The position numbers were made by a program, and so were the translations under genes. The notes under the pieces are model-generated. The model was not told the DNA's origin and made no database searches. It worked only from the letters and a program-made list of their open reading frames with translations. A DNA stretch of 64,000 nt, from assembly GCA_964016885.1 (NCBI GenBank), contig OZ024740.1:208444001-208508000 (forward strand). Direction: 5' to 3'. Source of the DNA: Eledone cirrhosa. Taxonomy: Eukaryota. Shown here piece by piece: positions 1,831 to 63,982 of the stretch (its first letter is position 1; every line of letters starts with the position of its first letter).

Positions 1831-1990
1831 TATAACAAAGAAAGTGTGGTAAGAAACCAGGTGGTCCAAAATGCAGCAGGGTACTCGATACTTAGGGTAG
1901 TAGAGTGGGTCGTTTCGACAGCTAGAACCGAACGGTTTTACCTGTCGAAACGGCTGGAGCTCAGCCGTCGGGGTTCTGACTCTTTTCCTA
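1831..1990. mobile_element. Family A fold-back element (half-hammerhead, PLE pLTR-like), diverged copy
   Basis: Shares tataac.aagaaagtgtggtaag...gtactcgatacttagggtagtagagtggg arm; has tttcgacag...ctgtcGAAAcggctggagctcagccgTCgggg. Confidence 0.75.
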
Positions 1991-2699: not shown

Positions 2700-4536
<1,837 letters not shown>

Positions 4537-11886: not shown

Positions 11887-12484
11887 TATGTAGTAGTAGT
11901 AGTAGTAGTAGTAGCAGCAACAGTATACCTCCTATAACTTCGATTCATACCCATCCCTTCCATATACTGTACCGATTGTGTTGTTATTTCTGTTTACCTT
12001 TTATATACATATATATACATATATATATATTTATATTTGTTTTGCGAGGTTTTTGATATGAAATCGTGTGTCGAAACAAATATTGTTATACTTGGGGAGG
12101 GTCATATTGTTGTAATAATATTGCCAGAAATAATTGTTTCCACTTTAGGCACAAGGCCAGCAATTACCCAGTGCATTACTGCTACTTTATTTTATCGACC
12201 CCGTAAGGATGAAAGGCAAAGTTAACCTCGGCGGGATTTGAACTACTGCCAATCCACCAGAACACAATCACTGTTTGGTTGGTTTTCGCTTCTGTATCTT
12301 TTATATCTCCATAGTTAATTCATTCGGTCCTCAATATTTACCATTGACTGACCAACGGTCAAAAATACAGATATAATATAGATAGATATAAACACATATA
12401 TATAGTCTAACAAAGTTCTTTCGTTGCACATCTGCAACATCGTCACATTTACAAAAATATCCAGATAACATCAACAATATCCGT

Positions 12485-15400
12485 ATGACAGACGTAGCAT
12501 TACCGGCAGAATTTACCAAAGACCATACAATAAATATTCATGGGAACACTTTAATCAATGAACAAGAACAACAGGCTCCACAGCTCCCACCGAAATTTGC
12601 TATCTACAAAAAGAAAAATCCAACCGAATGTAAAACGGAGCTGGAAAAGTGTTTCACAAAAATACGCTGGAATGCGAAAATAAACAACAACAACTATACT
12701 GACAATGACTCTGAGTATAGAAATAACAGCTATAATAGTAATAGTCATAACAATGACAATAGCAGGAGAGTGAGAAATAGTAGCAATAATAATGGTAGTA
12801 ATATTAACGATAGACAGAACAACAACAACAACCACAATAATAATAATGGAAACATCGACAGACACAACAACAACAACAACAACAACAACCACAGTGGTAA
12901 TAATGGAAATAATACGAGTAGCAACATTTATGATAGACACAACAACAACAACCACAGTAGTAATATTGGAAATAATACGAGTGGCAATATTAATGATAGA
13001 CACAAAAACAACAACAAGAAACATAATAATAAAAGTAACAACCACAATGGTAGAAATAACAGTAACAACAACAATAACAATAGAGAAAACAACAACAATA
13101 CATCTAACAATCATAACAATACATCTAGCAATCATAACAATAATAATAATGTTAATGGTAGGAACAATAATAACAATAATAGCAACACACACAACTATGA
13201 TGATAGACATAATGAAAACCCCTTAGAGAAACTATTCTTCAATCCAGCTGACAAAACAAATAAGATGAGTAAAATTTATCCTACGAGGTTACCCTTTAAT
13301 AAAAGGGTTTGTATACCACAACAAATAGATGACGAGACAGAGGCACAGTTCACCATAGCTAGAAATAAGATAAGACAAATAGTAGACCGATATACTAAGA
13401 GACAAAGCAGACCAGAGGTCCAACAACTTGGAAGGAAACCTGTAGAAGGCTTAGTTAGCCTCAAGCAGCGCACAAGGGATGGTGAGGTAGTATGTCTACC
13501 CACGGGTAAGTCTGGTAGGATGTCAATAGACAGCATGCCGAACTACATCAAGGCTATGCAACCCCACATCACCAACACCAGCGAAATTACACAACAAACA
13601 CATGAGGGGAGAGGGAAGATCCTCAACGCTCACATGATGATGTGGACCGACATCCTAAAGCCAAGCAGACGCACTGCCAACAACTTCCAGGCGTCTAACA
13701 ATGACATACCACCCTTGTATGGGATCCGCAAAGACCATAAGACAGTTGAGGACCCGACAACAGGACCACCAACAAGACCTGTATGCGGAGCCAATATCGC
13801 TAGCAACTACAGGATCTCCTACTTCCTCTCAATGGTTATACGCCCCATAATCAAGATGTCCCCAGATGTATGTGACAGTACAGAGAACCTCCTCAGCAGA
13901 ATCAGTGAATGCAACAAAAACAAAAACCTATCTAACTGCATAATAGGCAGAATGGACGTGGTATTACTGTACCCATCCATTAACATTGATTTCGCTGTGG
14001 AAAAATGTGTGGAGATGATCAGTGAGAGTGAGGTGGAGTTCTGCGACGTCGACACAGATGAACTGGGCCTCCTACTTAGACTTACTTACGACACTGACTA
14101 CCTAGACAGCCATGACCTTAGCCGTTTCTGCCCCAGTAGACCCATAAGTGGTATACTCCCCACCATAACCTCAATGGCAAAATAGACTTCCATGGGAAGG
14201 TGAATTGGGTGGACCAAAGTCATACGGACCGCCCAAAACAATGATCAGGTAAGAAAAATGGTCGCGCATGCAATAGAGGCTAGTATTACAACTACCCCAA
14301 AGGGCGACATATTCAAATTCAACGAGAAGATCTACACCCAAAATGAGGGAGCAGCCATTGGCGTCAGCATAGCTGGTGACATTACCAACTTTTTATGGTA
14401 TGGTGGGAAAGGAGACTCAAAGATCTCCTTGATGAGGGCTCATAGACCTCATCATGTACTCTCGTTACGTAGACGATATTAATATAGTAATAACGACACC
14501 CCCACAAGAGAGTACTAACAAGTATGATTTAGAATGTAGCACAATGGAAAGCATCCAGCAGATAGCTAACTCCATACACCAGAGTATAACTGTAACTATC
14601 GACTACCCTTCCAAACACCCTAACAGTAGACTACCTGTATTAGACACGGAACTCTGGATTAACACTATAGACGAGAGGGCCTCCAAATACCTGATACTCA
14701 AAAACTCAGCAATGTCCAGTAGTGCTAAGTTTAATATTCTGATCGCAGACTTGGTACGAGTGATGAAGAATGTGTCCCGCATGTGCGACCCAATAGAAAT
14801 GGAAAGACACATCCAACACTTCATCAACCACAAGCAGTTCTCCGGCTACAGCCAAAGAGACAGAATCAGAGTATACGTAGGAGCCATGGAGAAGTATTAG
14901 ACCCTCATAGAACTGGACATGAAAGGAATTTGCCCATTATACAGGAGCAAATCATGGAATAGCTTAGATAGGGCTAAACGTAAGATAGGGAAAGTCATTT
15001 CATGGTACGACAACCAGAGATACCAGAGTGTCATGTTCGTGGACGCTACCCCTGGAGGGAAATTAGCTAACCAGTGTAGAAAGGCCCTGAGAAAGACCCA
15101 CTTAAAGATTAAAGTGGTAGAAAAGCCAGGAACTACCATAAAATCCCTGATCAGCAAAACATACCCTTTTAAGAAAACCCACTGTACTAATAGGAAATGT
15201 ATTATATGTAAAGTAAACCCCCGGATAAACTGTAAAACTAGAAACGTAGTCTATAGCATAAGATGTACAGAGGGTACTTGCAGAAACATGAAAACAACAT
15301 ACATAGGCGAGACAGCTCGTAGCATAGGAGAAATGATAGACCAACACTGGGGGGAACTAAAAGGACGAAAAAACGGTTCAGTACTATACGAACACGCCAG

Positions 15401-15570
15401 ATAACAACATGACGGTAACATAGACAACATAGAAATTAAAATAGTATCTAAGCATAGAAATGACCAGCAGATAGGCAAATCAGAGAAGCAAGTGAAATAG
15501 AACTTAGAAGGCCAAAACTAAACAGAAAAAATGAATGGAATAACAACAACACCCAAACAAACAATACTGA
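12485..15570 (+). pseudogene. PLE RT plus GIY-YIG endonuclease, disrupted
   Basis: PLYGIRKDHK, RPVCGA, DVVLLYPSI, GAAIG, YSRYVDD, LPVLD, SAM..K, VMFVDATPGG, Cx4CxxC, NVVYSIRC..YIGETARS; several stops and frameshifts. Confidence 0.9.
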
Positions 15571-15826
15571 CCTAAGAGAAGTATAAATAAATAAATAAAT
15601 AAATACATACACAAGCACAATAACAACAAACACATATAAACACACACTAGTAAACTAAGATAGAATAAAATAACCAAAACACAGTCACCCAAACGCGAAC
15701 ACACACCAAACACTATACACACACGCAAACGCATGCGCAGAGAAGACAAAAATAAATAAATGAATAAATAAACAGATAAAATAAAGATGGCGTAGATATA
15801 CAATACAACAGGAGGAACATAATAGC

Positions 15827-15868
15827 ACCACTGACGATGTTGCAGATGTGCAACGAAAGAACTTTGTT
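15827..15868 (+). ncRNA. Hammerhead motif in the PLE 3' pLTR
   Basis: CTGACGA-t-GTTGCA-gatg-TGCAAC-GAAA-gaac-TT; stems I and III weak. Confidence 0.65.
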
Positions 15869-16182
15869 AGACTATATATGTGTGTTTATATCTATATTAT
15901 ATCTGTATTTTTGACCGTTGGTCAGTCAATGGTAAACATTGAGGACCGAAGGAATTAACTGATATAAAAGATACAGAACCGAAAACCAACCAAACAGTGA
16001 ATGTGTTCTGTTATTATTTCTGGCAATACTATTACAACAATATGACCCTCCCCAAGTATATATATATATATATATATATATATGTTTAATTAATATCTTA
16101 ACTGGTGCCATGTAGAAAATATGAAAAAGCTGAAGCAAATTTGATTTTACTATTTTAGATTTATCTTGAAATTTTAGCTCCG

Positions 16183-18262: not shown

Positions 18263-18448
18263 TATTTAATTAGAAAGTGAACAACACAAAATATAGCTAC
18301 TCCATTACCAAAGGTTTCTGGATCCCAGAAAAATATTAATATACGACTGGATTCGTCATCAGACAGAGATCCAGATATTAATATAATCTAGGAAACCAGA
18401 AACTTTTGATGATAGAGTAGTTATATTTTGTGTTGTTCACTTTCTAAT

Positions 18449-18452: not shown

Positions 18453-18484
<32 letters not shown>

Positions 18485-18487
<3 letters not shown>

Positions 18488-18683
18488 CGAAGGAAATGTG
18501 GTAAGGAACCGGGTGGACCATAACGCACCAAAGTACTCAATACTTAGGGTAATAGAGTGGGTAATAGGAACAAGTAAGACCCCGACGGCTGAGCTCAAGC
18601 CGTTTCGACGGCTAATTCTGGACTGAGTCCAGAATTAGCCGTCGAAACGGCTTGAGCTCAGCCGTCGGGGTCTTACTTGTTCC

Positions 18684-18686
<3 letters not shown>
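18485..18686. mobile_element. Family A fold-back element (best copy)
   Basis: Perfect palindrome 18564-18686 centred on ggac-tga-gtcc; GAAA-CGGCT-tgagctc-AGCCG-TC-gggg. Confidence 0.9.
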
Positions 18687-18766
<80 letters not shown>

Positions 18767-18792
18767 GGTTACACAACAGTTAGTTCACCATA

Positions 18793-18832
18793 CCGAGAAC
18801 AATTGTTTCACCTTCGCGGATCTTCAGCTCGG
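18793..18832 (-). ncRNA. Intact minimal type I hammerhead inside inverted arms (18761-18874)
   Basis: CCGAG-CTGAAGA-tccgcgaaggt-GAAA-CAATTG-TT-CTCGG; 5-bp stem I, palindromic stem III. Confidence 0.8.
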
Positions 18833-18937
18833 GATGTGTATGGTATGGTGAACTAACTGTTGTGTAACCACTTCTACCTAACTCGTCCCTTGGACTGAGT
18901 GCTCTACCACTAGTGATATTACTTTCCAGTGTTCCAC

Positions 18938-23724: not shown

Positions 23725-23875
23725 ATAACAAAGAAGGTGTGGACCATAACGCACCAGAGTACTCGATACTTAGGGTAGTAAAGTGGGTAATGGGAAAAGA
23801 GTCAGGACACCGACGGCTGAGCTCCAGCCGTTTCGACAACTAGATCCGTTCGGGGTCCTGACGATTTTCCCGTAT
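23725..23875. mobile_element. Family A fold-back element, shortened right arm
   Basis: tataacaaagaaggtgtggaccataacgcacc...ccgacggctgagctccagccgtttcgac. Confidence 0.75.
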
Positions 23876-23894
23876 ATATATATATATATATATT

Positions 23895-24480
23895 CCTCGA
23901 CCTCCTAGACAAACATTTTCCCCTTAATCATAGATATAATAGGATATTTAATAGAAATTTAGTCAAAATCAGTTACTCTTGCTGCCCATCAATGAAGACT
24001 AAAATTACCAACTCTAATCGTACGAGAGTAAATCCAGGATGCAGTTTCAGGAAGCCGGAAGAATGCCCATACAGGGTAAATGTAATACCAAATCCATTAC
24101 GTATGAGGCCAAATTGACACCGATGATTAATAACCAGCCAGCCAGGAGTGAACGATATGTTGGCATGACTCAGGACAGATTCAAAACTAGGTATTATGCA
24201 CATGTCGCTTCTTTCAAACACCCTGAAAAAAGAACAGCAACGGCGCTTGCAAATAAAGTGTGGGAGTTCAAAGACAAAAACATTCCGTACACTATTGATT
24301 GGTCTATTTTAGACCATTCAAGAGAATACCAAAGGGACACAAAGAAATGTTCTTTGTGCACTACGGAAAAATTTAGAATTCTCCAAAACTCGAAAGCCCT
24401 TCCACTTGCCTCAACTCTATGACCGAGATCTTCAGATGTTGTCCGCATCTGAATCGCACCTACTTTTAACTGGATTAACA
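23895..24480 (+). pseudogene. PLE 3' fragment (linker plus GIY-YIG)
   Basis: HFPLNHRYNRIFNRNLVKISYSC; CPIQGKC; ITYEA..RYVGMT..FKTRY..H; CSLCTTEK. Confidence 0.85.
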
Positions 24481-26045: not shown

Positions 26046-29000
26046 CGACACCACCTCCACAATCCCCGAAACGCAAACAACCTAAACAAACACAAGTACA
26101 AATAAACACACAAATACCTGAAATTGCAGACACCACAGCTACAACAAACATAGACATACCCGAAACAACACCACCAAAACCATCGCCACCACAGTCACCA
26201 AAACGAAAACAAATAAAACCACACCAACAAAATGTTAAAAACTTCGTGCTTGTCAGAAGGGCCAACGATAAACTGATGGCCCTCTTAGCGCGAAGCGAGG
26301 ACATTCAAACAGAAGGGGAGATTTTTGAAATGAGCACATTTTGCGTGCCAGAAGATTTGCTTCTGGTCCGAATGTCACTCAATTCCTTCAAAGAAATTCG
26401 AGAGAGCTTTCCTCAAGACGTGGGAACCCCGAACGTGAAACCCACATCAAGACTTTTAAAGGGGTTCCCAAAAGAAACCCCACCAACCATGGAGGTCGAA
26501 CCACCCGACCTTCACAAGACCCGGGAGGTAAATAAACCTTCCCTCTCTCTCTCTTAGCTTACCAATATGGCCATATTAAGAGTAGGAAGTTTAAATGTTC
26601 GCGGCTTGGGGTCACCCTGGAAGCAGGGTCGCCTGCTCAACGACCTCCGGTCGCTGGAAATGGATGTGATTGCCGTAAGCGAGACCAGAATTTCCGACAT
26701 GCGCGCACTAGCCCCCATTTTCGACGACTATCAGATCTTCGCATCTGTTAGCAGGCCGGGAATGGGGGGTTGGGTGGCAGTGCTGTTTAGGAAAGGACTG
26801 GATCTCGAGGTAAGGTCGATCTTCCGGGACCCGGACGGTAAGTTGGTGGTCTTGGATGTGAGCAGTGGCGAAGGTGGTGCCTTTAGTCTGCTGGCCGTCT
26901 ACGCCCCTACAGGGGCCAGACGACCTGACTTCTTTAGGCGCCTGGAGACCTTTCTGGGTACGTCTCGTACTTTACTGCTAGCGGGGGACTGGAATGGCAT
27001 CTTAGACCCACGCTGGGATTGTGTGGGAGTAGCCGATAGGAGCGGGGGGTGCAAAAGCCTCAAGCACCTACTCAGCCAGTTCCAACTGTCTGACAGGTAT
27101 CGACTAGATTTCCCCAATGTGCCAGTATGGACATGGACCAACCGAATGGGGTCATCTAGATCGTATATAGACAGGATGTTCATTAGGAAAATAGACAGAA
27201 ATAGTGTAAGCTGTCCACTTTTTAAAACGGTCGCCTATTCAGATCACAAATTTGTGATCTGTACGGTCGACCTAAATAAAACGCGTAGGTTAGGACCGGG
27301 TTACTGGAAGCTGAACATGTCATTTCCGGCACGTAAGGCTTACAGGGATCGAGTCAACAATTTAGTTAAGCAAAAGTTGACAGGGGGGATCATCAACAAC
27401 AGATGGTGGGTGGCTCTCAAAAGAGAGATTAGAGTAACTTCGATAGAGTTCAGCAAAGAACTAGCGTTAGAGAAAAATAGAAAGGAGGGGGAGCTGGTAG
27501 ATAAGTTAGACGAGGCTATTTGTAGTGGCATCGCAACTGACGTGCTAGCGGCGAGAATGGCATTAGACCATTTCTTCAATGCCAAACACAAAGGTTGCAT
27601 TGTCAGAGCTAAGGCGCGTGCGCTGAGAAACGAGGGAACTAAAGCTGTTCGATGGGCCCGCGTGGCGGAGGCGCAGCGTGGTAATAAAAGCACAATTCGG
27701 TCTTTGGCGGACCGAGAGGGACACGAGATAAGCGATTCCAAGCGGATGTGTGAGGCCTTTCGCCAGCACTTTGCTCGGTTGTTCAAGGAGAGTGGCGAGT
27801 CAGAGAGAGTAGCGGATTTCAGTCCCTACCTTGACGGCTTGCCGCGCATCTCGACGGTCGACGCTGAGCGCTGCGAAAGGCCGATTACTTCAGCCGAAAT
27901 TCATGACGCCCTTGTCGGCTGCATGAGGCGCAAGTCACCCGGTTTGGATGGCCTGCCCTACGAGCTTTACGTAAATATGCCAGACTTGTTCTCCGAACTC
28001 CTCGAAGCACTCTACTGCAACTGGCAGCAGAATGAGAGTATTCCCAGTTCTGTGAGCAGGGGAGTGGTGACGCTGATAAGGAAAGACGAGAACAAGAGGG
28101 ATACATTAGACAACTTCAGGCCCATAACTTTGCTCAACACAGAGTTTAAGATTTTGGCCAAGGTGTTAGCAAAGAGATTGGCGCTTGTCGTCGAGGATTT
28201 GGTCGGGGAGGTGCAAACTTGCGCAATCCCAGCCAGGTCCATACACGACAATCTCCACCTCATGCGATACATCATAGAGAGGGTAGGGTGTAAACCTGGC
28301 TTCGGTGGGGCACTGATCAATTTAGATCAATCGAAAGCATTCGATAGGGTCGACCATCGGTATCTGGAGTTTGTCCTCAAAGCAGCTGGCTTCGGCCCTG
28401 TCTTTAGAAGCTGGATCGTTGCAATGCACAGCGGCACACGCTCGGTGGTCAAGGTTAATGGCCACCTCTCGGAACCATTTCGGCTCTCCCGATCGATCCG
28501 TCAAGGGTGCCCTCTCTCTTCCCTTCTGTACGTATTGATTCTCGAGCCTTTACTGCGGAAGCTGGAGCTGTTGCAGGGCATCCCGCTCGAACCGGGACGT
28601 AGAAAGGCGGTGTCGGCTTATGCGGACGACATCACCGTGATGGTGTCGAACACCTCAGAAATCTAGGTGGTCGGCACCTTATTGAAGGAATATGAAAGGT
28701 TGACAGGAGCCAAACTTAACCCGGAAAAGTCGGTGGGCTTGCAGCTCGGAACCTGGAGAGGCAAGCCCATGCCGTCCAACAGCGTCGTGGGGCGCTGGAC
28801 GGACGGACCGGTAAAGTTGCTCGGGGTTTGGTTCGGACCAGACCTCCAGGTGGAAAAGAATTGGGACGAGGTAACGAGCAGAGTAGCCAGTCTCACCCAA
28901 AAATGGGCTGGGAGGAAGCTATCACTGAAAGGTCGCGCGGAGGTGGCGAATGCGTACATCGCGTCCGTCATCTACTACCGCCTGACCGTCGTGCCTTGCC

Positions 29001-30262
29001 CCCGTCCGCGCCTCGTCAAGTTGGAACGGCTCCTCTTCAAATTCTTGTGGAGGGGACAAGTTCCGTTGGTGAGGCGGTCCATCTGCTGCCAGCACCCTCT
29101 ACGCGGAGGGCTGGGCATGCCGTGGCTAATGATGCGCAGACATGCGTTGAGGCTGCGACATCTCCAGATATTCTGCCTCAACGGTGAACAGGTGTGGTCG
29201 CCGTTTATCAGACGGGCCTTTCCGCAGCTCATTTCTTTGACTGAGCTGCAGTCCTGGGTCAAGAAGAGACCGAGACTGGGTGACTGGCACCTGGAATGTT
29301 GCCAGGCACTCACTGCCCTCTACCAAGCGGGCAATGCGATCAGTGGAACTTCCACTCTCGAGTTCTATAGAGGATTAGTGGTGGGCAAATGCGATGACGC
29401 ACTCGGAGAAGCTTTGGGCCTCGACGAAGTCGAACTGACCAGTCTGTACCGGAGGACTTTTGAGCCGGAGACGATGGACAATTTCCAGAAATTCCTCGCT
29501 TGGCAGTGCTACCGGGGGGCACTGCCGGTTCGGGATAAACTCTACAGGCACGGAAGTGCTGTCAGACGGACCTGCCCAAGATGCGCACAGAACGACGAAA
29601 CCGTTCTGCACGCACTTGTCCAATGTCCGTGCATTACTGACTTGTGGAGTTATGTAGAACAGCTACTGTCGCGTGTGGAACGAATCCGGCTACCGGCCGA
29701 GTCCATAGTGAAGATCGACCCGCCACCTTCCTTAGGTCAGGAAGAGCAGGAAATTTTCCTGTCTGGTGGCAGTTGCGAAAGAGATTATATGGTGGACCAG
29801 GTTGAAAGGACTAAAGACAGACACTTTTCTCTTCGGCCAATCCCTTATCAACTTCTTCAAGTTTCACCTGGAAAGGAAGGTGATGGTGGAGAGAGAAGTG
29901 CTGCCCCCCCCCCCCAGTACATTTGCTAAAAGGTGGGTGAATGTGGCGAGAATGGCTCGTGTGAATGGGCCTACTCTGACCATGCGCCTATAGGCTAGCT
30001 AACTTGAGGAGAGAGGTGCTCTCCCTGGGTGCCCTAGAAGCGCAGGGTGGTTCAGGATTGGTGGGGTACCCGAATCGTCCACCCCCTATCGGGGAATTTA
30101 TTTTGTTATATTTATGCATAGTTTATTTTATTTTTTATATTTTCATTGTTAAATTAGTCTTGCCATTGTGTACTTTTACTCGACCTTATTGTAAACCCCC
30201 ACTGTCCCTGTCTTTGTATTGTCCCCTACATGTCGGCCCTTGTGGCTAATAAATGAAATCGT
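26046..30262 (+). mobile_element. L1-superfamily (Tx1-like) retrotransposon, 5'-truncated in ORF1
   Basis: ORF1 end 26046-26557, ORF2, AATAAA at 30248; (TTA)n on both flanks; GC-rich relative to background. Confidence 0.92.
26567..29993 (+). pseudogene. Tx1/L1 ORF2: APE endonuclease, RT, CCHC knuckle; one TAG (28664-28666) and one frameshift (~29765)
   Basis: SLNVRGL, GDWN, SYIDR, SDH; KSPGLDGLP, FRPITLLN, DQSKAFDRV, RQGCPLS, AYADD; CPRC..ETVLHALVQC. Confidence 0.93.
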
Positions 30263-31744: not shown

Positions 31745-34380
<2,636 letters not shown>

Positions 34381-47290: not shown

Positions 47291-49840
47291 CCGAATGATT
47301 CTCGGCTTCAGAGTTAGGAATAATGTATATAAATTACAGAGGTTATGGAAATCAACAATAATTAAATATATACATGCACGCATCCATATACGTACATACA
47401 CATGCATACGCGAAAACACCCGCCATGGGTATGCATATGCAAGCACGTACACAAAAACACGTGCACACATACAAAAACCCGCGCAACGCCTGTAGCCGCG
47501 CACATACGAACGTATACACCAAATACACATAAAAATATATAAAAATATATATATATGTGTGTGTGTGCGTGTATACATATAATTATATAAACGTATATAA
47601 ATATGCACACATAAATACGTATAAAACGGGCGCACACACATACCTACAGGTAAATACACATATGTTCGCTAAACAACGTCAACCAAAACACAAAGTGCGC
47701 ATATACACACACCCTACATACGTGCAAACCAGCATACAGACACAAACGGAAAATACACGTATACACATAACCATATACACATGTACCAGTATATATAATA
47801 TAATATATACACCTATAACAAATACAAGCAAATATACGTAGAAGATAGTATACGTACCTTCACAAAACATACAGGTAATATATACTTACCTATACAAATA
47901 AGTAATGGTATAAACATAAAATATACTTAGTTACCACATCAAGACGTAAATTATCCGCGTTCGTACTATCCGTTAGGGTATAATGTGGGGCGGTAATACA
48001 GGAAAGTTTTATGCAATTTATGTTTACAAGCCGAAATTGTCTCAGATTTTTTGTTTAAGATGTGGTCATTGGCGTAGAGTATTTCCAGGGCTTCAGCGGC
48101 GCAGAGGTCACATGGTCTTTTATTTCCGTTATACGATCTAGCCCTAGCTAGGATCTCCCAGTGTAGTTGTCTTTTAGACTCCAGATATAAGCTGAAAGTG
48201 ACGTCATATTCCTTCTTAAAGGGTTAAGGAAAGAATGAGTATGCATGTAAAGACGCTGCTTGAATCTATTGCGGTTAACCCTACGTAGGCCCTAGGGGAC
48301 GTGGGTGTTTCAACCTTACATTGTAGACAATGTTACTGGAGAGGCATTTCCCGGATAGGGGGCAGTCAACCCGATTCCTACAATTACAGTTAGTACTAGC
48401 TAGGGGGTTGCACGTGTTCCTATGTGCAAGGTTAGGAGTCGTAGAGTAAGAAATTTTAATGGTATTTCTATTAAAAATGTTATTATATTTATGTGCTGGT
48501 GGGAAATGCTTCTTAATAAGGGAGAGAAAGATCTTAGCTAATGGTGTGGCCACCTCCTTATTATATGGTGGGTTGTACCATATAATGCGTGAGGATCTAT
48601 TTTTCCTAGGTCTATGCTCATACTCGGTATATGCTACCTTATCGACAAGTCCACTCCGAGCGAGAGCTTCATTGTAATATGTGGAATGGTCGGTGAAAAT
48701 ATGCTCGTTTGTAGATAGACGGGAAAGCCTCAAAGAAACGTTTCTTACCAGGTTCTTGATTATGCTGGCAGGATGGTTAGAATGCTTGCTTATGTAATTA
48801 AGCGTATCATTCGGCTTCTATACGGGTAATGCAAGCCATTCGACAAATTGAGGGTAATTAACGACCGAGAGGTTGGCCTTTAAAGAAGGCTGTGAGTTCT
48901 TTTCTGAACCTGTCGCAGGCTCGTGGGCCGCACTTTGTCATGGCCAAAAGACCGTCATCACGGTAGAAACCACCGCCTACGTTGGGGAATTCTTCCTTGA
49001 TAGAGAAAAGAAGGAAAAGGCCGATAAGATCAGTAATCTCCGCAGAATCGCTGGCGCCGATACTCACGTCGAATGGGGTACTATTAGATTTTTTAATCCA
49101 AATAGAGTCGTCGAAATTAATCACCGACTTACGGGCATTGAGGATGACATCAACTTCGAAATCCTTAACCACTGTGAGTGTTTTAGCGAAATTGATAGCT
49201 CTAAGAAGAAGTGGTAAAGTGATGGAGGAGTAGTAATTATTGATGTCGAATTGGATAAAACGGCAATGTTCCTTGTTACATATGCCGTTGAACCAATCAA
49301 TCACCGCGAAAGAATTGTTCCACAGTGCAAGAGGGGCCAAACTTCTAATTTCAGGTATAATTCTATCTAAAATCCTTTTACTAAGTCTACCTAAATCGGA
49401 CTTCGTAGGGTTAATAAGCCGAATAGAGGGGTTGTTGGGGAAATTGAATTTGTGATCCTTCAGGGTAAAGTGGGTAGAAATGGGGTCCTGAGGTTCAGCC
49501 CGGTCCAGGATGTTGAGATCAGAGGTGATTTTAAACCCAGCATCGTTGATGTCATTAATGACACTCCGATTAGTTTTACGGTAATCCTTAGTTACAGCAT
49601 TGTGTAGCAGTTGCGTTCCACTTGATATAGATTGCCAGTTTTGTCGGAGTGGACGTGCACGGCACTAGAATCCTTAATAGAACGAATTCTATTCTTCAGG
49701 TCCTGCTGGAAGGAATTGCTCCTATTCTGAAATTTGATATTCCGTATGAGTTCCAAGACATCATTTTCGAAGGGTAGCAATGCTGGGTTACTCGGAGGGT
49801 TATTGTAAGTTTTAAACCCAAATTTATCCTGTTTGTTATA
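47290..49840 (-). mobile_element. PLE, degenerate RT plus GIY-YIG, with 3' UTR
   Basis: SDKTGNLY, TLKDHKFNF, RLINPTKSDLG, FIQFDINNYYSSI, GASDSAEI, YRDDGL, WYNPPY, CNCR..CPLSGKC. Confidence 0.88.
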
Positions 49841-50034
49841 TATATACTAGCTGGCCCGTCCGGCTGGCGCTCAGCTAGTATATATATATTTGTGTGTGTG
49901 TGTGTATGTTTATGTATGTATATATATATATATATATATATACATACATACATACATACATACATACATACATACATACATACATACATACATACATACA
50001 TACATACATACATACATACATACATACATACATA

Positions 50035-52720
50035 GAGATACGATTTGGAGATACAAAATTTAAAACTTTGAACTCCAAATTACACCAGTTGAAACAACAA
50101 CTCACAGCTACAACAGAAAGACTAAAATATAAGTCAACAGCACATAAACGACAAGTGCTAAATAGATTGTTTGCCAGAGATGCTAAATCAGTTTATCGCA
50201 GCTTCGGTGGCAAAAGCTCAATCCCTGTAAACGACACCCCTTCAAAAGAACAGGTTGAGAGCTACTGGAGATCTGTATGGGTAACGGATGACGGATTCAA
50301 CAGACAAACTAATTGGCTAAAAGAACTGGAACAGGACTACTGCCAACATGTCCAAACAAAACAATATGACATAGATGGGTCAATACTGGAAACAGCTCTA
50401 CAGAAAATGTCGAATAGGAAATCGCCAGGCCCAGACCTCATTATAGGATACTGGCTGAAGAATTTCACTTTCTATTGGCAAGATCTCATACGGCTGTTTA
50501 CAGAAACCATTAAAGGCACACAAGAACTGCCCAGATCGTTATCAACTGCCACTACTCTCCTCATTCCCCAAAATAGCCAAACCACCCTTGCTAAAAATTA
50601 CCGCCCAATAGCCTGCCAAAACATCATGTATAAATTATATACTGGGTGCCTTAACCTGTTCTTACAGGATCACTGTGCTACCAACAACATCATAACACCT
50701 GAGCAAGCTGGTGGAAAGAGGGAGGTGTGGGGTTGCATAGATCACCTACTAACTAACAAAATGATTCAGGAAAAAACAACAAAGACTCGCAGAAACATGA
50801 CTGTGGTGTGGCTGGACTATCAAAAAGCATTTGATAGTGTACCTCATGGGTGGATTATTAAGGCTTTACAGTTAGCTAAAGTCCCACAACCATTGGTAGC
50901 TGCTGTTGAACGCCTGACCAAGAACTGGTACACCAATTTGATCCTTAGAGGTGAGAACGAGAAAGTTAAGACTGATAAGATACATTACCAGAAGGGCATC
51001 TTTCAGGGTGATAGCTTGTCAGTGCTACTCTTCGTTCTCTCACTGAATCCACTATCTTACCTACTCAGGAAACAAGGTGGACAAAGAAGTGGGCCCAGAA
51101 GTATCTCCCATCTTTTCTTTGTTGATGACCTGAAGTTGTATGGGCCAAATATCAATGACATCAAGAAACAATTGGACCTCATTACACAATTTTCAACCGA
51201 CATCAAAATGAAATTTGGTGAGTCCAAGTGTGCATATTTGGCAGTAAAACGTGGAAGAGCTGTGCCCTCCTCTAGAAATCTAGAGATGAACGGCCTGACA
51301 ATACAACCTCTACAGTCAGGTGACAACTACAGATATCTTGGACAGGATGAGAATGTCAGATATGATGGACCCATAAATAAGGAGAGAACCAGAACTGAAT
51401 ACCTCAGAAGAGTAAAGAAAATATGGTCATCAGAACTGTCAGCGTACAACAAATACATTGCCCACAATACTTATGCTGTACCAATTCTTACCCCAACATT
51501 TGGCCTGCTGAACTGGTCATTGCAAGAAATAAGTGAGATGGATGTTAGAACTCGAAAACTTCTCAGTGTTACTGGGAACTTTAACATCAATGGTGATGTG
51601 GATAGACTATACTTCTCACGCAAGGAAGGTGGCCGGGGTCGAAAATCAATATTAACAACATATGAGACCCGGATAGTAACACTGAAGCAACACCTTCAAC
51701 AGAGGAAAAAGGTTGGCAACCATCTTTCCCAGGTTTATGAGCATGAAAAAAAAAATCATTAGAATAGCGACTGATCTGGAGGAGAGATATGGAATAAAGC
51801 CTGATATAAATCTCTCACCCAGAGAAATCGGAAGATCCTATTCAATGTTCAAACAAGATTTAAAAAATTGACCAATTTACAGAAAAAGTTGTGCATGGAT
51901 ACTTGAGGCGTAAAACACAGACCATAGAGGAGATAAACCACTCAAAAAGCCTGGCATGGAGTTCCGACAAGTTTATGACATCACACCTTGAGGGATATCT
52001 CTATGCAATACAGGAACAAGAACTCCCTACCAAATATCTGCTGCACAAAAGAGGAGGGCCAGCAGCTGACAATAAATGTAGGCTATGTAAAACAAAGATC
52101 GAGGATGTAAGCCACATTGTTGCCAGCTGCGAAAGAATGTCATCTCGCTACTACCTCCCCATGAGACACGATGGGATAGCTAGAACCATCTGGAACGCAC
52201 TTCGGAAAAAAAATTAACAACAAACGAGTAAGAATATATTGAGATAGATGGCACTAAGGAATACTGGTGGAACCTGAAAATAAAAACTGCCACCAAATTA
52301 AAGCACAACCGGCCTGATATTGTTGTTTGGGACCACACATTGAAAACGTGTTCTGTTTTGCAAATAAGCTGCCCACTTGAGGTAAACGTTGTCAGAAAAA
52401 TACAGGAGAAGGACATCTACGGACCATTGATGAGGAGTTTACAAATCCAGTATCCAAGATACACCTATAGCTTCATACCCATCATTATTGGAGCTACGGG
52501 TTATATACCAACCCGCTTGGACCAAAGTATGACTGAACTTGGATTTGCGGACAAAAAGCGCAGCACCCTAATTCATAGTCTACAAATGGCTGCGATAGCT
52601 GGCACCTTCAAAATTTGCAAAACATTCTTGCGATTCAAGGGATGACAATTTCTTTTCTTTTACAACCTTGCCACCAGGAAGGTGGCCGGTCAAAAAAAAT
52701 ATACTCGAATTTAAGAGAAA
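50035..52720 (+). pseudogene. R4/Dong-like non-LTR retrotransposon (RT, CCHC, restriction-like endonuclease), 5'-truncated
   Basis: KSPGPD, YRPIAC, WLDYQKAFDSVPH, GIFQGDSLS, FVDDLKLY, RKEGGRG, AIQEQ, CRLC..HIVASC, RHD, HNRPDIV; frameshifts after 51760. Confidence 0.9.
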
Positions 52721-53346: not shown

Positions 53347-56300
53347 TACCAGTTTAGCCCGTCGTTGCTCGGGTTTGTTCATTTGCTATGAAAAGTTATA
53401 AACAGGTAAACGTGGCTTGAAAGCGCATAGGTTTATCAATTAAGTGCATAAAGCAGTTGAACCGGTTATTAAAAGTTACAAACCAGTTAGCATTTTGGAC
53501 AATCAATGATGGGTTAATAATCTTCCAATAGCGAATTTAGTAAACCAAAGTTGCAAGATGGTGGCCCTGATGCCGCTGGGTGTCAGATCCGTCCGCCATG
53601 GGTGACCCTACCAGTTTTCTAGACGGCATAGCTCTAACACCTCCAACACCTGCACAACATCTATAGCACCTCTTTGTAGACGATATTGCGTGTCATCCCT
53701 TGAGGAGTGTAAGCAAAAAGTCCATTCCTGCTCCCTACGCGGGAACAGGCAACATAAAGTAGGCCATGGCAGAAGCATGGTTCCCCCAAATGGATGCCCG
53801 CCACCGACAATGTTTGCCCTTGTGTCTTGTTAATGGACATGGCAAAACATGGTCTCACTGGGAATTGGGATCGCCGGAAATCGAACGGAATATCTGACGC
53901 CGAGGGGAAAAGGTTCATCCTTGGAATGAAAACATTCTCCCCTCTCCCGCACCCCGTTACAATGGTGGCCTCAAACAAGTGGGGCGACAGTGACTTGACG
54001 ACCATGCGAGTACCGTTGCACTGCTTTGGTGGACGCAAGTTCCTATTAGCATAATGGGACAGCCAACCCTAAGCTTAAGAATGTGAGGTGGGAGCCCTGG
54101 GGGCTCAAGGGAATTTAATAACTCAACCGGATAATTAACGATTTCGTCGGGGTCTGACGTCCGGTCGATAGATTTGAAGATAGCTCTTTACCGGGAATCT
54201 TCTCAATCAGCTGCTCGTTAATAACATTAACCATGGCATTTTTCGGAGCAAGGATGGCTCTTTCGCTGAGCCAATTGAGGTTTTTAAAGTTAGATGAGAC
54301 ATTAGGAAAAACTGCTTCCCGAACGTCAGAAGGGCTGCTCACAATGTTGCACAGGGAGTCGATTGCTATGCCACCTTTGTCATCCGCAGATATCTTGCTC
54401 TCACTAAGTGCTAAAATGTTCTGAGCAAATGCTGCAGACATGTTGTCACCATGCAAATGAGCACGCATATTTGTGCTCAGGTACAAACTCTTCACCTGGA
54501 ACCACAACATGGACGACTTAAGGCAGGCACGCACTTCATCAGCTCTTGTCCCTTTGGGGATGTCAGGCAGCGTTTGCCGAAAATCCCCTGATAGCAGAAG
54601 GGTTACGCCACCCATAGGAGCCGTAAAATCCCTAATGTCTTTCAGGGTCTTATCCAATGCCTCAAGGGCACCCTTGTGTGCCATTGTGCACTCATCCCAA
54701 ACAATGAGGCAACATCTTTTAAGAACCAGAGCTTCGTGTGAACTCTTGCTGATATTGCATGTTGGTGTCTCAGTTTTTACTAAATCCAAGGGGAGTTTAA
54801 AGGTTGAATGTGCTGTCCTGCCTCCCGACAGCAAAGTAGCAGCGATCCCGGACGATGCAACGGCCAACGCAATTTTTTTCTCATGAAGAATCTTAGGGAG
54901 AATCAATTTCGTTACATAAGTTTTTCCGGTACCCCCAGGAGCATCGAGAAAGTAAATACCCCCAGTCTGATTTTGAACATGATAGTTAAATAGGCCAACC
55001 TTTGGTCCGATAGAAGTTTGGGCTCATTTTCCTCTAAGTATTGGGAAAGAGATTCGATGTCATATGCAACAAATCCGGGGCCAACGTGTTAGCTTCCTCT
55101 CTGACGGTTGACGGCAAGCCATACGTCGCCAACTCACTCTCACCCATGTCGAGGAGGGCGTCCTCGATATCAATGAGTGCCCTATTGTAGATAATGTCGC
55201 TATAACCAACTTCCACTGAAGTATACTGCAGATGAGCCAGGCGCAGGAAGTCCTCAGACATGAAGTCTCTGTACTTGACCCATAAAGATTTGGGATCACC
55301 CAATTCACACTTTTGAAGCAAAATGGCAAAGAGTTCCCGTAGACCTTTAGGCGATTTCAACAAAGCACCCTCTGCTAAAGTGGAATCCCATTGCGAATCA
55401 TCTTCCAAAAGACCGCACTTAAAGTAGGCTTCCCGGTACGTATCACATATTTCTTCAACAGTTTTGATGTCCTAAAAACTTTGTGGGCCTACAACTTCAT
55501 GCAGAAGAAGGCGGAGATGAAAGCACTCATGCTGACTTGGGAGCACAGTATAAACCCTTCCAAGACAGCTGTCAAATTTTACACCAGGATGTCTTTCAGC
55601 AGCCTGACCTGACTTTCTTCGCACCCAAGTGTTTTTCGACCATATAAAGTAGGACGGAACCTGGGGGTACACAATTGTTTGCGCAAATGTATCGAACTGG
55701 CAAAGTTTGAAGAAACCCGTCAGAGTGGTCTCTTTCGGATCGGCGGCCAGCTTGGCGGCAGTTTGGTCCGTAAAGTAAACCCTTTGCCCATTTTCCAAAT
55801 GTACCGCAAGCTGTACGATGGCGGGGTGACGTTGGTGTAGGGGTAAACCAAATAGGCGCCAAAAAGCTTCATTGCTACTGATGTACCACCCCACCAGGTA
55901 TTCTGTGACCTCGTCGCTGCTATTTTCAGCTAGAAATGCGAACATTGCGGCATCAGAGCCCTTATTTACATATTTGCATATGTATTTTATCGACTTGACG
56001 GAGTTGCAAAACTCAACGTTGATGTGGGCGTTGAACATCTTCAAGAGAAGCGGGCAGTAAGGGACCACCCATCTATTGTCGACTTGACCTCCCCTTACTG
56101 TTGTGGTGAAGCCACCGTTCTCGGGCCGTCTCCGCCTGTACAGGGGGTACCCGTCGCCACCAGTCTGAGTATGGTCAACAAATTTTTTGGGGTATCCCTT
56201 ACTGCACGACCCCCCTTTCAGACACGTGTGATGCTAATTAGGACCCGACGCACACGGACCATGTTAGCTTGGACGATGTCATGTAATTCCTGGTCAGTTG

Positions 56301-60460: not shown

Positions 60461-60464
<4 letters not shown>

Positions 60465-60628
60465 CAAAGGAATTGTGGTAAGGAACCAGATGGACCATAA
60501 CGCACCAGAGTACTCAATACTTAGGGTAGTAGAGTGGGAAATATGAAAAAGTATACCCCGACGGCAGAGTCCAGAAATAGCCGTCGAAACGGGTTGAGCT
60601 TTGCCGTCGGGGTCATACTTTTTCATAT
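60461..60628. mobile_element. Family A fold-back element
   Basis: Shared arm plus gtccagaaatagccgtcGAAAcgggttgagctttgccgTCgggg. Confidence 0.8.
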
Positions 60629-63694: not shown

Positions 63695-63755
63695 TTTTGT
63701 CTGATGAAGGCATACCATATTTTAATTTGGTATCCCTGAAATATGTATAATGAAA
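63695..63755 (+). ncRNA. Type I hammerhead motif
   Basis: ttttgt-CTGATGA-AGGcATACCA-tattttaatt-TGGTATcCCT-GAAA-tatgta-TA-atgaaa, then AATAAA. Confidence 0.72.
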
Positions 63756-63817: not shown

Positions 63818-63982
63818 ATAACGAAGGAAGTGTGGTAAGGAACCAGGTGGACCATAACGCACCAGAGTACTCGATACTTTGGGTAGTAGAGTAGGTAATA
63901 GGAAAAGTTTCAGGACCCCGACGGCAGAGCTCAAGCTGTTTCGACGGCTATTTCTGGACGCCCAGAAATAGCCGTCGAAACG
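63818..63982. mobile_element. Family A fold-back element
   Basis: Shared arm plus tttcgacggctatttctgg-acgc-ccagaaatagccgtcgaaac. Confidence 0.8.

Follow-up and report, generated by a model that had tools for sequence, protein, structure and literature searches.

The window analyzed here, a 64,000-nt stretch of the Eledone cirrhosa genome (3.0 Gb), contains at positions 18485-18686 a palindrome that lies within (TA)n, with target sequence on its left (18455..18484) and on its right (18686..18709). It is composed of a 140-nt arm and a 60-nt arm placed head to head around a single base, G18625. Arm positions are numbered from +1, the A of TT/TC-AGTCC, which is located 18 nt before GAAA in the 3' strand of hammerhead stem II. 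The long arm (18485..18624, minus strand) corresponds to +1..+140 of a Penelope-like element (PLE) unit, with 95% identity to a natural tandem unit, and the short arm (18626..18685, plus strand) corresponds to +1..+60 by sequence comparison with the parent element described below. More specifically, the short arm carries on the plus strand the stem II 3' strand (18626-43), GAAA (18644-47), stem III CGGCT(tgagctc)AGCCG (18648-64), the GUC triplet (18664-66) and the stem I 3' strand GGGGT (18667-71), which bears out the reading of the arm as half of a hammerhead in a preliminary description of this DNA. The long arm additionally has an 80-nt 'tail' (18485..18564, minus strand) between two fixed ends, +60 and +140, both of which finish in TA. 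The center base G18625 (plus strand) sits at -1 of the short arm and is a candidate cap-templated or non-templated base; taken alone it is ambiguous, because some long copies of the same subfamily have C at -1. An unrelated palindrome of ~110 nt adjoins this copy at 18764-18877.

All six copies noted in the preliminary description are present, and 18485-18686 used as a BLAST query matches 1833-1991, 4355-4536, 23739-23837, 60462-60628 and 63819-63982. The copy at 4356..4536 (plus strand, 99% identity to the tandem unit) has its short arm on the left and its long arm on the right, both starting from about parent +8 and overlapping by 4 nt. Two copies belong to a diverged subfamily, one of the AGTTCGG type with an internal deletion in the long arm (1833..1990, minus strand) and one with deletions and approximate ends (23727..23873, minus strand). 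At 60462..60627 (minus strand) the long arm ends within stem III (~+32), where microhomology links it to a short arm that begins at +1. The long arm of the copy at 63819..63982 (minus strand) begins at +2 and its short arm is broken just after GAAA; past the end of the window, this broken arm runs into another hammerhead-bearing repeat. As previously described, the 5' half of the core is absent (0/6 copies) and the symmetry axis lies mostly in stem II, namely in the copies at 1831, 4356, 18485 and 63818; in those at 23725 and 60461 the join of one arm lies more to the 3' side. Rfam, at gathering score, gives 0 matches in the window.

Elsewhere in the window are open reading frame (ORF) pieces which, from their motifs, we take to resemble an L1/Tx1-type LINE (26558-29929, plus strand), another non-LTR reverse transcriptase (49879-52645, plus strand) and a Helitron Rep/helicase (53661-56233, minus strand). 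Broken ORF fragments at 47969-49840 (minus strand), 31950-32654 (plus strand) and 23890-24401 (plus strand) have 30-55% identity to the parent protein and, judging by this likeness, are other Hydra-type families. PLE-like ORF pieces, again broken, lie at 12392-16060 (plus strand); they include a long Asn-rich insert, terminate in a GIY-YIG-like stretch and precede a CTGACGA core. Inserts rich in Asn have been described for rotifer Penelope (PMC3846280).

Genome-wide, an arm 24-mer has 52,348 exact matches compared to 0 for its reversed control, and the mirror-arm repeat is far above chance expectation. Counted by a tail word, tailed arms number at least 36,741, a lower bound because the search pattern bars G at the first place. 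For arm statistics we used 186 arms, taken from C1 0-19 Mb in positional order, from 40 10-kb stretches spaced apart and from the window; loci L001-L060 and L132-L160 lie outside this sample, and L001-L060 are included in the count of 122 arm pairs given below. Most sampled arms are from C1 0-19 Mb. Because each arm had to match a stem III anchor (≤3 substitutions), the count is too low for arms cut 3' of stem III. Outer ends with a TA flank are fixed, with 72/97 short ends and 65/84 long ends each at one position, and a TA run is found after 181/186 arms, in keeping with a (TA)n insertion bias. Both the center and the short-arm length had been described as varying between copies; the first part stands, and the second gives way to two fixed outer ends between which the center alone varies. 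Poseidon PLE reverse transcription starts at two internal sites that bound the tail (PMC11167929), and by analogy +60 and +140 may be two reverse transcriptase (RT) start sites. The top matches to the 18485 copy are 40 near-identical copies of 202 nt, which were removed from all center statistics because they had been selected for likeness to the query.

The parent of these arms was reached by position-ordered sampling. Locus L165 combines a tailed copy in inverted orientation with a partial copy, an ORF of 719 aa and a tailless end, and locus L320 contains tandem units with a period of 3,542-3,543 nt (3.54 kb), adjacent units being 99.8% identical. Partial or full tandems forming pLTRs, together with an inverted 5'-truncated copy and a tail at one end, are seen at L165, L161 and L320. 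The ORF encodes YRDD (RT) followed by a C-terminal GIY-YIG (VIY..YIG), as in single-ORF EN+ PLEs. It also has DKT at 117, CNCPDRSIC (CxCX5C) at 572, CNLC (CxxC) at 670 and CKH (CxH) at 698, each common to 111-116 of 120 homologs and all on the motif list of the Hydra clade (PMC8557442). The parent has RWR at 37, where RWK occurs in 83 and RW[KR] in 114 of the 120 homologs. Sequence searches of the ORF against Pfam and PDB returned no match; its top homolog carries PF01541. By these motifs the parent is confirmed as a PLE with Hydra-type motifs. The label 'Hydra-type' is drawn from motifs and not from a tree, and we use it in place of clade membership because of RWR for RWK, a non-canonical hammerhead core and a unit above 3 kb. 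The parent is intact and recently duplicated in the same genome. Its RT-GIY-YIG ORF and its tandem and inverted arrangement uphold the earlier proposal that the palindromes are retro-products and not DNA-transposon MITEs.

On the upstream side of the arm, the order in the parent is ACCCC, UUGANAA, G, a long stem II and GAAA. The arm is accordingly the 3' half of a type I hammerhead, as first proposed; the missing half, which had been expected to be CUGANGA, is instead UUGANAA (U3-A8), so that the search for a parent linked to an RT/GIY-YIG ORF succeeded and the search for its CTGANGA core did not. The U3-A8 core is found in 18/23 long arms, with position 7 varying (G/U/A) and other core positions mostly kept, and this variant is known from Schistosoma PLEs (PMC4209133). 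Searches based on CTGANGA gave only chance matches, another repeat family and one mutated mirror arm, the latter at L157:1400-1590 (minus strand), where two substitutions create CTGATGA upstream of GAAA; this arm is not the parent, and its core is probably due to chance because the stem I register does not fit. Absence of a CUGANGA parent had been named as grounds for rejecting the proposal and is essentially what we find; this is misleading, however, since the parent has a known variant of the core, U3-A8. MFE folding gives a three-way junction in 2/3 full-region folds with weak z-scores, and among 8 aligned copies, which are few and related, 89% of cells are paired and 4 pairs are changed on both sides. 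With three helices round the core, a 3-8 pair, GAAA and NUH, the parent region is by sequence a type I hammerhead, whose cleavage is itself predicted.

Other repeat families with CTGANGA hammerhead-like cores occur in the window at 63701 (plus strand), 34394 (plus strand), ~18345-18430 and ~2170-2270, and elsewhere at L018, L026, L033, L037, L125, L131 and L141. Many CTGANGA-core families form head-to-head palindromes, whose center lies upstream of the core and seems to have a preferred position specific to each family. In addition, L319 (G000:C2:356030085-356032066) is a head-to-tail 299-bp array of the mini-palindrome family, in which each unit retains the 5' core and a shortened stem II is rejoined at +1; from its sequence, this array looks like a nascent non-LTR retrozyme. 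With this one array excepted, a non-LTR retrozyme was rejected as an identity for the family, since the mini-palindromes are head-to-head with half a ribozyme and not head-to-tail with a complete hammerhead.

Arms stop predominantly at one place. Among 186 arm ends, 140 fall at -8..+8, 2 at -9..-59, 23 beyond -59 and 21 3' of +8 (Fisher p 3e-14), with peaks at +1 (23), +2 (24), +5 (19) and +7 (18). A depth step of ~25-fold is found at the +1 limit in independent sequencing contigs of unrecorded run type, which cannot show RNA ends (run X1: 140k upstream to 3.6M). The largest class has T at -1 (at least 12,654) and takes in long copies as well as arms that reach -1 to about -10, so the 5' limit spans more than one base. 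It is wider in the diverged subfamily, where many arms extend to -5 to -17, and extra 5' limits are seen by eye at ~-11 to -16, several after a non-parental G; these are possible alternative start sites. No clear peak is found at the ribozyme cleavage site, with ~2-4 of 100 listed tailed arms at or beside it by eye. The sparsely populated interval -9..-59 (51 nt) holds the loop side and 5' strand of stem II. MFE folds place +1 in a paired position in two subfamilies and in an unpaired position in a third, while the AGT word and its 18-nt distance to GAAA are kept across subfamilies and stops are rare at the GC-rich base of stem II. Other hammerhead-bearing palindromes in the genome have their center upstream of an intact CTGANGA (18 pairs listed). 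Because -9..-59 is nearly empty, +1 pairing differs by subfamily and other families invert upstream of their core, stem II does not set the axis.

TCAGT/TTAGT, the word at the limit, is an initiator word. Inr-like words have been noted in a PLE pLTR (PMC3846280), and the Penelope promoter has been placed in the pLTR (PMC2377424). Against a start at +1, not every subfamily retains the TATA-like word at -29, and of 11 copies that begin at the limit and include leader sequence, all are incomplete, their matches reaching +143..+971, so that no copy running whole from +1 to the 3' end was seen; these copies do show templates that begin near +1 and extend up to 971 nt into leader and ORF. We infer that +1 is a transcript 5' end, probably capped.

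The genome contains 378 perfect palindromes with a one-base center, and in the first 100 of these, read by eye in long-arm sense, the center base is G in 55, C in 33, T in 7 and A in 5. Long copies (n=23) have at -1 T in 17, C in 6 and G in 0, and G at -1 is non-parental. In the subfamily whose parent has T, 24/31 one-base centers are G/C (14 G, 10 C; p 0.002), the extra G being on the short arm in 10/31 copies. Genome-wide, G-AGTCC occurs 5,050 times vs 827 for A-AGTCC. Two-base centers (50 of 64) fix the polarity of the extra base, with CG in 6 and GC in 0, and CG plus CA/TG in 12 vs GC plus GA/TC in 1. The extra G is found on either arm or on both, as in six picked examples with G on both arms and 0-6 nt between them. 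Outside perfect centers, microhomology to GAGT words of the mirror arm accounts for part of the G at -1. For L1, an untemplated 5' G has been read as cap copying (PMC9341517).

Close arm pairs combine one tailed with one tailless arm in 65/65 cases in the sample and in 120/122 across all loci, the exceptions being 2 short/short pairs; one long/long pair occurs among the listed one-base-center palindromes. If a single cDNA folded back, the tailed arm should always reach further 5'; this expectation is not borne out, as the further-reaching arm in 47 clear cases is tailed in 25 and tailless in 22. Later deletion of palindrome centers could scramble which arm reaches further. The two arms of one copy share subfamily tags in 45/65 pairs compared to 12% between copies, so centers arise recurrently, in agreement with the independent events suggested earlier. 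At L202, the two arms carry tags of two different subfamilies. Junctions have overlaps of 1-7 nt in 31/65 pairs, and the GAAA-to-GAAA distance ranges from 1 to 55 nt among the 65. Ongoing homogenization of arms is not supported because rare variants are shared in 5 cases and unshared in 81. In vitro, a Poseidon PLE cuts and extends both target strands, and a dimer is predicted (PMC11167929). Two cDNAs made from one RNA or one RNP and joined at their ends would fit the pairing data; self-priming fits less well.

Taken together, the mini-palindromes are 5'-truncated head-to-head PLE insertions, and we consider it likely that they form when two cDNAs from opposite target strands run off a likely capped RNA 5' end and are joined. 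In this model, the promoter would lie in the pLTR and direct transcription from the A of TT/TC-AGT; with this A placed within hammerhead stem II, the 5' end of the RNA would carry half a ribozyme and the 3' end a complete one. The RT-endonuclease would nick both (TA)n strands, and at the 5' copy of the initiation signal the two 3'-OH ends would prime synthesis, one at +60 and the other at +140. Both cDNAs would stop at the RNA 5' end, often gaining C opposite the cap, and their ends would then be joined, whether bluntly, through microhomology or with a short insert. The axis would lie in stem II because the start site sits there and not because of the fold. More tentatively, and with somewhat less than even confidence, we hypothesize that the mini-palindromes record, across the genome, a reaction in which the RT-endonuclease acts as a dimer: from opposite target strands it would prime two cDNAs at two fixed positions of a capped sense RNA, the start of which lies inside the ribozyme.

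An alternative we regard as improbable is a single cDNA that starts at the tailed site, reaches the 5' end of the RNA and then uses microhomology to fold back and serve as its own template; the mirror arm would be shortened by the endonuclease or by a stop at +60. Such self-priming would account for the shared subfamily tags (45/65) and the short overlaps (31/65), for an extra base commoner on the tailed arm (55 vs 33) and for a short end adjoining ATT, the motif cut by the Poseidon enzyme (PMC11167929), and PLE palindromes have been read in this way (PMC3846280). It is at odds with the short arm reaching further in 22/47 clear cases, the extra G on the short arm in 10/31 copies of the T-parent subfamily, zero-spacer centers with G on both arms and the two subfamily tags at L202; the 55:33 bias of G to the tailed arm would still allow a minority of copies to have formed by single-cDNA fold-back. 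We likewise think it unlikely that the +1 limit reflects RT stalling in the long stem II, or an uncapped nuclease-cut RNA end, with the extra base added by terminal transferase, a reading under which two-cDNA joining may still apply. In its favor, the long stem II helix shows compensatory changes, the limit extends over several bases and the cap is deduced from DNA; but the pairing state of +1 changes between subfamilies while AGT and its distance to GAAA do not, stops are rare at the GC-rich stem base, and other families invert upstream of their hammerhead.

The mechanism first suggested for these copies, in which the cDNA snaps back on ribozyme stem II and RNA structure sets the inversion point, appears very unlikely and is largely refuted as a main route: it would need the loop and 5' strand to be copied, but only 2/186 arms end in the 51 nt that hold them, and neither the extra G nor the fixed short end is explained. 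Most axes do lie in stem II, and the L163 junction (-17) and a few listed T-AGTCC rows keep the loop and could fit. Least credible to us is amplification of the palindrome as a unit, by a MITE or a non-autonomous master element. While the fixed outer ends, the 40 near-identical 202-nt copies and a one-base center geometry common to 378 copies would favor it, that center recurs in several subfamilies with the subfamily's own tag on both arms, the distance between GAAA motifs spans 1-55 nt, the termini are not inverted repeats of each other and the sequence is that of a PLE end. A DNA-transposon MITE was rejected given asymmetric termini, a variable center and an RT-element partner, target site duplications being unreadable in (TA)n.

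In L1 twin priming, the second target strand primes a second cDNA, and adjacent, non-overlapping parts are inverted. The route we favor, two cDNAs joined at the RNA 5' end, shares with it the second target-strand primer, and L1 likewise has an extra G at complete 5' ends (PMC9341517); in contrast, both cDNAs here cover the same 60 nt, resulting in an inverted duplication with fixed starts. In the accessible parts of the report on C-terminal EN+ PLEs of the Hydra clade (Craig et al., 2021, PMC8557442), we find the same single ORF with RT then GIY-YIG, the same DKT, CxCX5C, CxxC and CxH motifs, (TA)n targets, partial tandems, an inverted 5'-truncated copy, a one-end tail and a hammerhead in the pLTR. 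The element described here differs in its 3.54-kb unit (generally <3 kb in the clade), RWR for RWK, U3-A8 for the canonical core, an 80-nt tail in place of 30-40 nt, and an output that consists mainly of 60+140-nt mini-palindromes with a common 5' limit. Poseidon PAc of Anolis (Frangieh et al., 2024, PMC11167929) is alike in its two fixed ends bounding the tail, AT-rich target, extension of both strands in vitro and hammerhead near the ORF start; it belongs to a different clade, and the available portion of that report offers no derivation of the inverted copy or of a 5' limit defined by the cap. The minimal hammerheads of Schistosoma PLEs (Cervera and de la Pena, 2014, PMC4209133) share U3-A8, a long helix II, a short helix I, a palindromic loop 3 (GAGCTC here) and motif pairs on opposite strands, whereas here helix III is 5-6 bp, helix II is ~55 nt and most copies have the 3' half only. 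Finally, Adineta vaga Penelope junctions (Arkhipova et al., 2013, PMC3846280) have head-to-head palindromes and Inr-like pLTR words, which were read as self-priming on an antisense template; in our case, G is on the sense 5' side of either arm, which points to a sense template and two cDNAs.

The element class, inverted copy, tail, (TA)n bias and U3-A8 core are thus already in print. In the accessible open-access literature, supplements aside, no report was found of a cap-derived G or a start-site limit in PLE palindromes, and the available parts of PMC13282606 and bioRxiv 10.64898/2026.07.22.740005 describe no such palindromes. How PLE inverted ends and tails form is stated to be open in PMC8557442 and PMC3846280. 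With tens of thousands of junctions and an intact parent in one genome, the formation route becomes testable at single-base resolution. Furthermore, CUGANGA-based searches miss PLE hammerheads such as the U3-A8 parent, and MITE-like palindromes in (TA)n can be retro-products. Two joined cDNA ends would explain how PLEs acquire inverted ends. If the more specific model of a dimeric enzyme acting on a capped sense RNA is true, one mechanism would account, in all EN+ PLEs, for the inverted copy as well as for the tail being on one side only, the antisense self-priming model would be replaced, and promoter placement would disable the 5' ribozyme copy while leaving the 3' copy whole.
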